Origin: Tichowtungia aerotolerans
GTDB lineage: Bacteria; Verrucomicrobiota; Kiritimatiellia; Kiritimatiellales; Tichowtungiaceae
Reading direction: 5' to 3'
Assembly: GCF_009905215.1 (NCBI RefSeq)
Contig: NZ_CP047593.1
Location: forward strand, 1,026,900 to 1,058,899
DNA length: 32,000 nucleotides
Part shown: positions 28,051 through 30,148 of the stretch, piece after piece
How the letters are laid out: every line of letters starts with the position of its first letter
Numbering within the stretch: the stretch's first letter is position 1
Position numbers and translations under genes: made by a program
Notes under the pieces: generated by a model
What the model saw: only the letters and a program-made list of their open reading frames with translations
Told to the model about the DNA's origin: nothing
The model's database searches: none

Positions 28051-28734
28051 ATTTTTATATACCTCTTCTAATCCGCGATTGAGTCGAGTGAGCACATCAG
28101 TCAGCTTTTTATCTGTGATCTTCTCTTTAGACTCAAACAAAGCAAACAGTGATTCAGCCTTGCCTTCCTCAATAGCTCGCAAAAATATCGCCAAAGCCTG
28201 AATTTGTCCTTCATCCTGAACCGTAACAGTTGGTCTTTTTTTCTGTTGAAGAGTTCTGCCAATGCCGCCTTCCAGATCCCCCATGTAGGCATAAATTCGT
28301 GATTTAACCGTTGTGTTGTCGGTTCGCGATTGCCCCCACATTATCCAGGGTGAGATATCAAGCGAGAAATGCAGAAGAGGTTCCTCGGCTGGGTGGAAAT
28401 AATTGTATGAGCCATCATTAACACCATCTTTTACGAGTTTTTTATCTTCCCCGTAAACCGCCTCCTTATGTCCGTCAGGGGAGAGGTAAACAGTATTATC
28501 CTTTGCGCCATTTTGCTGGTGTATGCACACCTCATGTGTGTTCTGAAGAATGGTGTAGAGAATGGATATTTTTTCTGCAGATATTTCTCCGCTTTTGATT
28601 TGTTGAATATACGGTGCCAGCTTGAGTTCTTTCTCAGCCATTTTACAATGACTGGACATCTGCTTTTCTCCAAATTCAGCAATAGCCATGATGGGAATAA
28701 TTGCGCTTAAGATGGCAATGATGATTTTTTTCAT
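28045..28734 (-). CDS. Cassette ORF: hypothetical secreted protein
   Basis: 229 aa with signal peptide MKKIIIAILSAIIPIMAIA. The ATG lies 10 nt after the GTTAGGA core. Its 5' 299 bp is duplicated at 29774-30072. Confidence 0.7.
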   Translation of the reverse strand: MKKIIIAILSAIIPIMAIAEFGEKQMSSHCKMAEKELKLAPYIQQIKSGEISAEKISILYTILQNTHEVCIHQQNGAKDNTVYLSPDGHKEAVYGEDKKLVKDGVNDGSYNYFHPAEEPLLHFSLDISPWIMWGQSRTDNTTVKSRIYAYMGDLEGGIGRTLQQKKRPTVTVQDEGQIQALAIFLRAIEEGKAESLFALFESKEKITDKKLTDVLTRLNRGLEEVYKNS

Positions 28735-28744
28735 ATTTTGTGAT

Positions 28745-28808
28745 TCCTAACGTTGAACGTCACTCTGAGCGGGCGGAGTCCGCGATAGAGTGAAAGTTGT
28801 TGTTGGGC
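28745..28808 (-). repeat. attC-like site, class A (64 bp)
   Basis: Minus strand: GCCCAAC aacaacttt CACTCT atcgcggactccgcccgctc AGAGTGA cgttcaac GTTAGGA. The inverse core fits RYYYAAC. Confidence 0.8.
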
Positions 28809-28817
28809 AAATTTATT

Positions 28818-29174
28818 TTAGTTTCCACTAGAAAGCTTTCTGGTTATTTCGGCTTTGATATACTCAGCGAGTATTCCAAATGTCCAAGATGCTGATGGCT
28901 TCAAAATGTTTTCTTTTGCTTTATTCCAGATGGATTCATCTTTGATTGAGTCTGCGAAATCTTGACCAGTCCAAGTTAGCCGAAAAATCATAGCAGCGTT
29001 CGCCAACGGTTTTCCTCCACCTGAAAATGATGCCGTTACCAAGCCTGCTTCTTCCAAAAGTTGTGCGTGGTAGATGAAAACTTTTGGGGCTATGCCGCTG
29101 ATGCTACTTAGTGGCTTATCTGAATCTCGAACCGCTAGAACAACGGTTCGAATTATGTCCATGTCTCTTTTCAT
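28818..29174 (-). CDS. Cassette ORF: DUF2513-like (winged-helix) protein
   Basis: 118 aa. The N-terminus MKRDMDIIRTVVLAVRD... matches my recollection of the characteristic MKRDMDLIR.ILL start of DUF2513 proteins. This was recalled, not searched. Confidence 0.6.
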   Translation of the reverse strand: MKRDMDIIRTVVLAVRDSDKPLSSISGIAPKVFIYHAQLLEEAGLVTASFSGGGKPLANAAMIFRLTWTGQDFADSIKDESIWNKAKENILKPSASWTFGILAEYIKAEITRKLSSGN

Positions 29175-29184
29175 ATTTATCTAT

Positions 29185-29269
29185 GCCCAACGGGTGAAAG
29201 GAGCCTCGTGGCTTGTGCTTCGCATAGACACGCAGCGAGTTTCACGTAGGGTCACTTGATTTGTTCGGC
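29185..29269 (-). repeat. attC-like site, class D (85 bp)
   Basis: Minus strand: GCCGAAC aaatcaa GTGACCCTACGTG ... CACGAGGCTCC tttcaccc GTTGGGC, a perfect GTTRRRY core. Confidence 0.75.
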
Positions 29270-29637
29270 TCCATTAATATTGATTGATCAAGTTTTGCTA
29301 GCACCCACAATGTGTACCCACCAATGACTGTTCCGATCGGGAATTGAAAAAGCAGCAGAACACCAATGATGAATCCAACAACTCGCGTTGCCCATTTGCG
29401 GTTCATGCGGACAGCTTTTCCAAAAAATATATGAAATATTGCCTGCACTAAGATCAAAAGTGATGCACCAATGAACATAAAAACGATCGATTGCAGATCA
29501 GGTTGTCCTGTTCCGCTCAATAGGCGCTGTATATCTTTTATCGTAAGGGGAATGAAAAGAAGGGCCGCCGCAATTCCAATCCAACCGAATGCGATATATA
29601 CAGTTCCTAATCTATGCAGATGCTTTTCCATTTTCAT
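29242..29637 (-). CDS. Cassette ORF: hypothetical small membrane protein (3-4 TM)
   Basis: 131 aa. The ATG lies 8 nt after the GTTCGGT core. The C-terminal PNKSSDPT* is encoded by the class D attC, the same tail as ORF 17108-17437. Confidence 0.65.
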   Translation of the reverse strand: MKMEKHLHRLGTVYIAFGWIGIAAALLFIPLTIKDIQRLLSGTGQPDLQSIVFMFIGASLLILVQAIFHIFFGKAVRMNRKWATRVVGFIIGVLLLFQFPIGTVIGGYTLWVLAKLDQSILMEPNKSSDPT

Positions 29638-29645
29638 TTTTTGTT

Positions 29646-29760
29646 ACCGAACGTCAAAAGTGAGCTTCGGAAAAGGCCGTTCCGACTTCCGCCCCGTGCG
29701 AACTTTTGGTTTAAAAAATCACCACCGGGGTTTTCCGTAAGTTCAACTTTCTGGTTCGAT
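29646..29760 (-). repeat. attC-like site, class C (long, ~115 bp)
   Basis: Minus strand: ATCGAAC cagaaagttgaacttacggaaaaccccggtggtgatttttt... CCAAAAGT tcgcacgg... ACTTTTGA c GTTCGGT. Confidence 0.6.
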
Positions 29761-29773
29761 GTTGTTTATTTGT

Positions 29774-30052
29774 AACCGCCTCCTTATGTCCGTCAGGGGA
29801 GAGGTAAACAGTATTATCCTTTGCGCCATTTTGCTGGTGTATGCACACCTCATGTGTGTTCTGAAGAATGGTGTAGAGAATGGATATTTTTTCTGCAGAT
29901 ATTTCTCCGCTTTTGATTTGTTGAATATACGGTGCCAGCTTGAGTTCTTTCTCAGCCATTTTACAATGACTGGACATCTGCTTTTCTCCAAATTCAGCAA
30001 TAGCCATGATGGGAATAATTGCGCTTAAGATGGCAATGATGATTTTTTTCAT
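29774..30052 (-). pseudogene. Truncated duplicate (first 93 codons) of cassette ORF 28045-28734
   Basis: 29774-30072 is identical to 28456-28754. The reading frame then runs into unrelated sequence and the class C repeat (ORF track 29711-30052). Confidence 0.8.
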
Positions 30053-30062
30053 ATTTTGTGAT

Positions 30063-30148
30063 TCCTAACGTTTGAGAGGAGCCTCGTGCCCTGTGCTTTA
30101 ACTTAATTGAGCGGCGGCGGACACGTAGGCTCACTTGACTGGTTGGAA
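30063..30148 (-). repeat. attC-like site, class D variant (86 bp)
   Basis: Minus strand: TTCCAAC cagtcaa GTGAGCCTACGTG ... CACGAGGCTCC tctcaaac GTTAGGA. Confidence 0.7.

Follow-up and report, generated by a model that had tools for sequence, protein, structure and literature searches.

An exact 299-nt repeat in an attC cassette array of Tichowtungia aerotolerans suggests cassette duplication at G/TT and later fusion of two cassettes

We detected the same cassette 5' end twice, behind two different attC sites, in one 32,000-nt stretch of Tichowtungia aerotolerans DNA (the whole stretch analysed, hereafter the window). One copy belongs to a complete cassette, here called X, and the other is the front part of a truncated, chimeric cassette. 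The exact repeat, its boundaries, the attC architecture, the truncation of the encoded protein and the mismatch between the start of the chimera and its attC were demonstrated directly. We suggest, with a probability of about 0.75, that an integron integrase duplicated cassette X by copy-and-paste and that a later illegitimate deletion fused two cassettes. The slash in G/TT marks the recombination cut.

Results

Pairwise comparison of positions 28456-28754 (copy 1) and 29774-30072 (copy 2), both carrying minus-strand genes, gave 299 identical nucleotides without a mismatch at an offset of 1318. In the 80 nt past each end of the repeat, the ungapped identity is 19/80 and 20/80, which is the random level. 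Both copies consist of 4 nt of an attC end (AACG), the 16 nt past the cut, which begin with the start TTAGGAATC and form the leader, and codons 1-93 (279 nt) of the intact gene; the ATG of X lies at 28734 on the minus strand, with 20 nt of the repeat upstream of it. The exact alignment bears out what the earlier note had read by eye, that is, an identity over 299 bp at this offset and a block made of the leader and the first 93 codons of a 229-aa signal-peptide protein (ORF 28045..28734). The same note had named homology running on into both flanks as the sign of a plain segmental duplication, and such homology is absent. A 20-nt probe for the cassette start, scanned over the window, matched at the two repeat copies only (0 matches expected in shuffled sequence), and a probe for the stretch of X that directly follows the breakpoint on the 3' side had a single occurrence in the window.

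The repeat lies in an array where short ORFs on the minus strand alternate with imperfect palindromes; the array begins at about 8850, reaches the window end and continues past it at 32000. Left of about 8800 we found ordinary chromosomal genes, encoding a LacI regulator, an MFS transporter, a GH78 rhamnosidase and a sulfatase. The ORFs between 27485 and 31918 are all on the minus strand, 113-229 aa long and mostly without a Pfam family, as is typical of a cassette array. The array is heavily invaded by IS elements. Rfam and tRNA scans of the window gave no match.

Neither an integrase gene nor attI was found in the 32,000-nt window, so membership in an integron is read from the attC sites and the cassette architecture alone, and within the window the region is formally a cluster of attC sites without an integrase. 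The scan of the larger ORFs in the window detected no tyrosine-recombinase (integrase) domain, which places the integrase, if it exists, beyond 32000. The array is presumably that of a sedentary chromosomal integron whose integrase lies on that side.

An attC site is defined by a 5' inverse core RYYYAAC, a 3' core GTTRRRY and a length of 57-141 bp (PMC5027507). We set the sites by inspection of the intergenic sequence together with the repeat families; an automatic finder that demanded AAC/GTT end pairing in the minimum-energy fold was too strict and returned mostly false sites. The palindromes form four families, class A and class B (64 nt each), class D (85-86 nt) and class C (115 nt). The nine sites between 27420 and 31509 are 64, 64, 64, 64, 64, 85, 86, 115 and 115 nt long, each with ..AAC and GTT.. 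as its two ends; the purine/pyrimidine pattern of the definition holds for most of them, for instance GCCCAAC/GTTAGGA and AGCGAAC/GTTCGCT. Class C has three copies in the window (19580, 29638, 31009), which are firmly conserved from CGAAC to GTT and share at most a weak A-rich likeness upstream; the sequences upstream of this module are unrelated in all three. Two genes that are unrelated to each other have identical class A attCs. Two class A attCs each hold, at a matching position, a copy of an IS110/IS1111-family element whose transposase has 375 aa.

Secondary structure prediction is consistent with the imperfect attC hairpin of the bottom strand, which comprises an R box, an unpaired spacer, an L box, extrahelical bases on the double-prime arm and a variable loop. 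The bottom strand of the X attC in its circular form is predicted to fold with an R box of 9 bp, separated by a 4/3-nt spacer from an L box in which a single A is bulged, and a loop, and the predicted class C bottom-strand hairpin has three single-base bulges on the 3' arm; the bulged bases in these predicted folds differ from the canonical G and T. Relative to shuffled sequences, the fold z-scores of five class A/B sites range from -2.4 to -2.9 and that of the class B site of X itself is -1.65; the values in classes C and D are weaker (-1.8, -1.0, -0.2).

When a cassette is excised at G/TT and circularised, its first bases complete its own attC and so complement its own inverse core. This circle test, applied to the eight cassettes between 27420 and 31509, gave exact runs of 7, 8, 8, 3, 6, 8, 9 and 8 nt: the chimera has the run of 3 nt, and the other seven have 6-9 nt. 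Among non-self pairings the run was 3 nt, the invariant GTT, in 37/56. A cassette split by an IS256 inversion was rejoined by the same test. The test separated intact from chimeric cassettes here and is reusable for annotating other arrays.

The complete cassette X (27993..28750, minus strand, 758 nt) extends from the TT of G/TTAGGA to the G of its own attC core. It carries the 229-aa gene (28045..28734, minus strand), which has an N-terminal signal-peptide-like segment and belongs to an uncharacterised conserved family, and its own class B attC (27987..28050, minus strand, 64 nt, inverse core TCCTAAC, core GTTCGCT). The X start TTAGGAAT exactly complements the inverse core AATTCCTAAC of this downstream attC in a 9-nt run, in which the start GTTAGGAAT of the full cassette pairs with its own inverse core ATTCCTAAC. 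Judged from the sequence, such complementarity is the signature of a unit that circularises at G/TT.

We found 63 homologues of the X protein, mostly of 200-260 aa, and those above about 55% identity span 82-100% of the query. The family alignment combines a signal-peptide-like N-terminus with a strongly conserved core, and the 229-aa X gene is the full-length form of its family. X had no match in Pfam, and its confident AlphaFold model (pLDDT 88.7) had no fold match in the PDB. The genome scan detected distant relatives only (at most 62% identity), in Planctomycetota, Verrucomicrobiota, Lentisphaerota, Kiritimatiellota and Desulfobacterales. Some relatives lie in other cassette arrays with unrelated attCs, at loci L005 (start TTAGGT, inverse core ATCTAAC) and L018 (start TTCTGCG, inverse core CGCAGAAC), which marks the family as a mobile cassette gene; further relatives are in ordinary chromosomal surroundings (L003, L001). 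A metagenome scan with the X cassette start gave no match.

Both repeat copies start at G/TTAGGA, one behind a 64-nt class A attC and the other behind an 86-nt class D attC. The class A site upstream of copy 1 (GCCCAAC...GTTAGGA, 28745..28808, minus strand) belongs to a DUF2513 cassette (ORF 28818..29174), and the class D site upstream of copy 2 (TTCCAAC...GTTAGGA, 30063..30148, minus strand) to a cassette with ORF 30131..30520, whose start GTTGGAAT matches the class D inverse core ATTCCAAC. On the coding strand, ...GACGTTCAACG (class A) leads up to the cut of copy 1 and ...CTCTCAAACG (class D) to that of copy 2, followed in both cases by TTAGGAATC.

The only bases that the two copies have in common beyond the cut are AACG, and ACG stands before the cut in 7/9 attCs compared. 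The class A attC of copy 1 equals the class A site at 16644-16702 from CCCAAC through GTT (59 nt identical) and diverges from it afterwards, while the class D attC of copy 2 aligns with two other class D sites through CGTT. Since each attC keeps to its class up to the cut, the switch to cassette sequence is mapped to AACGTT, and neither attC is a hybrid. A switch at this point is predicted by site-specific recombination at G/TT, not by homologous recombination or random duplication. The identity ends at G/TT behind unrelated, non-hybrid attCs, as it should after an integrase-mediated duplication. The earlier note was right in both of its claims here: the limits that it gave for the two attCs run exactly from 7-mer to 7-mer, and the boundary at G/TT fits integrase-mediated movement, with homology ending inside AACGTT in two attC contexts.

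Copy 2 is part of a 417-nt cassette (29652..30068, minus strand) composed of 295 nt of the X 5' end, a class C attC (29646..29760, minus strand, 115 nt, inverse core ATCGAAC, core GTTCGGT) and, between them, 13 foreign nt. Its ORF (29711..30052, minus strand) encodes 113 aa, 93 X residues followed by 20 out-of-frame residues read from the attC; it is identical to X through ...DGHKEAV and unrelated beyond. Residue 93, where the X sequence breaks off, lies inside the conserved core of the X family (...DGHKEAV/Y), and copy 2 is therefore a pseudogene. The cassette lacks the class B attC of X and ends in a class C attC that mismatches the cassette start, which is the state of a fused cassette. The start GTTAGGA agrees with the own inverse core ATCGAAC at the invariant GTT only (3 nt), so that this cassette is a chimera; its predicted circular fold has no R box, for which reason it is expected to re-insert poorly.

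Between the 3' junction of copy 2 (29773/29774) and the 7-mer inverse core ATCGAAC (29754-29760) downstream of it there are 13 nt; the distance to the conserved CGAAC is 15 nt. A cut at 29774 beside the class C inverse core had been claimed before and is correct; the spacing then given, 14 nt, is not. On the coding strand, the junction reads GGAGGCGGTT, then the 13 nt ACAAATAAACAAC (29761..29773, minus strand), then ATCGAAC..., and the sequence shared by the two copies ends in GTT at the breakpoint (GGCGGTT/A). The 13 nt contain AAA TAA and resemble the ORF end ...GACAAATAA upstream of the attC at 27420-27482; by this resemblance they are probably what is left of a downstream cassette, namely its final codons and stop. 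Because copy 2 does not stop at a recombination point on its 3' side, a second, non-integrase event is needed.

Two other delimitations of this region were tried and rejected. GTTACAA with the 13 nt was considered as the boundary of an empty cassette, and GTTACAA does not match the inverse core that follows. A short class C attC starting at TTTAAAC is incompatible with the conservation, which begins at CGAAC, 115 nt from the core, and with the long hairpin, in which CGAAC pairs with GTTCG. A metagenome scan with the class C attC core gave no match.

Discussion

We infer the integrase role, the deletion mechanism and the order of events from the boundaries described above. The integron integrase would have duplicated cassette X by semi-conservative excision ("copy and paste"), in which one sister chromosome keeps X and the excised circle re-inserts. 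Re-insertion would put X behind a different attC, joined exactly at G/TT, and copy-and-paste at G/TT would thus leave two identical 5' ends in the class A and class D contexts. Experiments have demonstrated copy-and-paste duplication by the integrase, and large chromosomal integrons are reported to contain duplicated cassettes commonly (PMC8024014). We consider the involvement of the integrase at the 5' boundary to be very probable. One point counts against it: integrase insertion usually occurs at attI, and copy 2 is at least four cassettes away from the window edge nearest the presumed attI.

A later non-integrase deletion would have joined X codon 93 to a downstream cassette, at a point 13 nt before its attC, likely by replication slippage or illegitimate recombination, perhaps aided by an attC hairpin. 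It would have taken away the 3' part of X together with the class B attC of X and nearly the whole of the next cassette; the remainder would be a fused cassette that ends in a class C attC, complete in structure but non-coding. Either the deletion took place in situ, or the chimera may have formed elsewhere and been inserted as a unit. Fused cassettes from loss of the first attC are known, though rare (PMC4670013). Illegitimate deletion is the explanation that we favour for the 3' junction, with less assurance than the integrase at the 5' boundary; that a random endpoint would fall 13 nt from an attC and leave it intact is a coincidence that tells mildly against it.

The GTT immediately before the breakpoint (GGCGGTT/A) raises the question of whether the 3' junction was also made by the integrase, at a secondary site in X (GCG G/TT TAC) recombined with a downstream G/TT, with excision of the intervening DNA. 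Secondary sites of the GWT type are open to integron integrases. The partner point, however, would be 13 nt upstream of the inverse core, away from the core site of the attC, and GTTACAA as a cassette start matches the inverse core ATCGAAC at GTT only. Such a reaction would be a secondary-by-secondary site event, which is expected to be very rare. A GTT beside the breakpoint arises by chance in about 1 of 64 cases. We regard a secondary-site event at the 3' break as possible, but unlikely and less likely than illegitimate deletion. The breakpoint is near the edge of the class C module, as would also be seen if a ready-made class C attC had been joined to a gene fragment (attC swapping or cassette genesis) and no simple deletion had occurred. 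Class C on three unrelated upstream sequences, with conservation from the inverse core or a few nt before it, agrees with this, as do the identical class A attCs on two unrelated genes. Against it, the fused gene is a broken piece of a conserved protein, the cassette start mismatches the attC, the 13 nt before the attC resemble an ordinary ORF end (..AAA TAA), as upstream of the 27420-27482 attC, and two metagenome scans yielded no further examples. We know of no mechanism that joins ready-made attC modules to gene fragments. It is very unlikely that the chimera has this origin, and equally so that it is the trace of a process adding ready-made attCs to arbitrary DNA a few nt upstream of the inverse core; if real, such a process would bear on the unsolved birth of cassettes and would explain the identical or nearly identical attCs on unrelated genes in the array.

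Turning to the repeat as a whole, a duplication made without any integrase, by plain segmental duplication, template switching or homologous recombination between attCs, has in its favour that attCs of the same class are similar enough to recombine (the two class A sites share 59 identical nt) and that the array was also rearranged by IS elements. But the two upstream attCs are of different classes and non-hybrid, no IS borders the repeat, and homology stops within 4 nt of the crossover in both copies, where the shared bases are those of the attC consensus. With cassettes of 400-760 nt, we estimate a chance of about 1e-4 that random source and insertion points would both fall at cassette boundaries. 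We give little credence to this origin. An assembly artefact, a collapsed or chimeric join across attC-rich repeats, is less probable still: the copies are perfectly identical and assembly is difficult in arrays rich in repeats and IS copies, but the window apparently lies within a single 3.88-Mb contig, both copies stand in coherent contexts with neighbours that pass the circle test, and an artefact would not put the junction exactly at G/TT. Copy-and-paste duplication by the integrase followed by illegitimate deletion thus appears to be the best explanation of the repeat.

The phenomenon is standard integron biology with no new kind of element, and it leaves the understanding of integrons unchanged. 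As a clean example at the sequence level, it brings two known integron processes side by side in Kiritimatiellota, a duplication bounded at G/TT and the decay of a cassette by fusion. Our literature search found no papers on integrons in Kiritimatiellota.

Among known systems, the closest to the duplication are the duplicated cassettes of sedentary chromosomal integrons (e.g., the Vibrio cholerae superintegron) and the class 1 copy-and-paste events (PMC8024014). As there, one cassette is found twice in an array, each time bounded at G/TT behind a different attC, and the identity of the two copies suggests a recent event. In contrast to duplicated cassettes elsewhere, the array has four attC classes (64, 64, 86 and 115 nt) and not one homogeneous repeat, one of the copies is truncated, the host belongs to Kiritimatiellota, and the action of the integrase is deduced from sequence. 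The IS110/IS1111-family copies inside attCs recall the IS1111-attC group, with ISKpn4 and ISPst6 (Tetu & Holmes 2008 and Post & Hall 2009, as cited in PMC11187229); the likeness is one of family and insertion position, and it concerns the surroundings of the repeat, not the repeat.

The chimeric cassette resembles the fused class 1 cassettes blaGES-1/aacA4 (PMC4670013), in which loss of the first attC leaves one unit, closed by the attC of the second cassette. The known fusions usually keep both coding regions and are selectable, whereas here the first gene has lost 59% and the second has almost disappeared, and the product is a pseudogene cassette with a start that no longer matches its attC.

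Two class A attCs in unrelated cassettes

The attCs at 16644-16702 and 28749-28807, which are identical from CCCAAC through GTT, belong to unrelated cassettes: the first cassette encodes a 128-aa membrane protein, the second a 118-aa DUF2513 protein. Their outer inverse-core bases are unlike, ATCCCAAC versus TGCCCAAC, and each fits the start of its own cassette (GTTGGGAT and GTTGGGCA, respectively). The combination of identical inner parts with outer bases matched to the cassette's own start suggests concerted evolution of attC cores inside the array. The last attC of the array was found at about 8841-8904 (GCCTAAC...GTTGAGC), with core genes beyond.

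The cassette with the 229-aa protein and its relative

The 229-aa protein (28045-28734) of the integron cassette with the repeated 5' end belongs to a conserved family distributed mainly in PVC-group phyla and has His, Asn, Asp and Trp residues that are invariant. Its structure was predicted confidently (pLDDT 88.7); the Pfam search returned no family, and fold comparison of the predicted structure with the PDB gave no match. The closest relative (85% identical) is located at 1740-2480 of locus L001, adjoined by a glycosyltransferase gene. CGTTAGGAG is kept upstream of the start of this relative, and the downstream sequence (..GAATTCCTGA) is without a recognisable attC; possibly the relative represents a cassette that became fixed outside an array, or one whose attC has decayed.

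Rearrangement and cargo of the array

Two inverted copies of an IS256-family element with a 405-aa Mutator-type transposase are located at 21306-22754 and 25862-27310, and the DNA between them (22755-25861) has apparently been flipped by them; the two copies have the 7-bp target duplication, GCGCGAT, divided between them. The cassette starting after the attC at 27420 begins with G|TTCGCTTG, and the matching inverse core, AAGCGAAC, was detected at about 24053-24060, behind the 399-aa ORF 22861-24060, now on the plus strand.

The IS256-family element at 21306 also breaks the second copy (20005-21305) of a second IS110-family element, which has a 339/367-aa transposase and subterminal inverted repeats ..ATGG(C/T)TGAAGC; at 16644 this element (first copy, 15017-16643) directly adjoins the core site GTT(C) of a class A attC. 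Possible array-borne defence genes are a cassette encoding a 246-aa TIR/SEFIR-domain protein (18826-19566) and an unusually large 826-aa cassette ORF (12597-15077), weakly matching the N-terminus of type I restriction R protein.

Comparison with known integrons and attC-targeting elements

Four distinct attC classes (64, 64, 85-86 and 115 nt) occur together in one array at 8850-32000, in which it differs from the Vibrio chromosomal integrons, where homogeneous repeats are typical. Two near-identical copies of an IS110/IS1111-family element with a 375-aa DEDD transposase, inverted relative to each other (9387-11191 and 24061-25865), are inserted at one position of two different class A attCs, directly after ...ATAGAGTG, and the remaining attC arm (..GGT(G/T)GTTCGC) follows at the far end of each copy. 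Residing within class A attCs, these copies resemble the attC-targeting IS1111-attC group.
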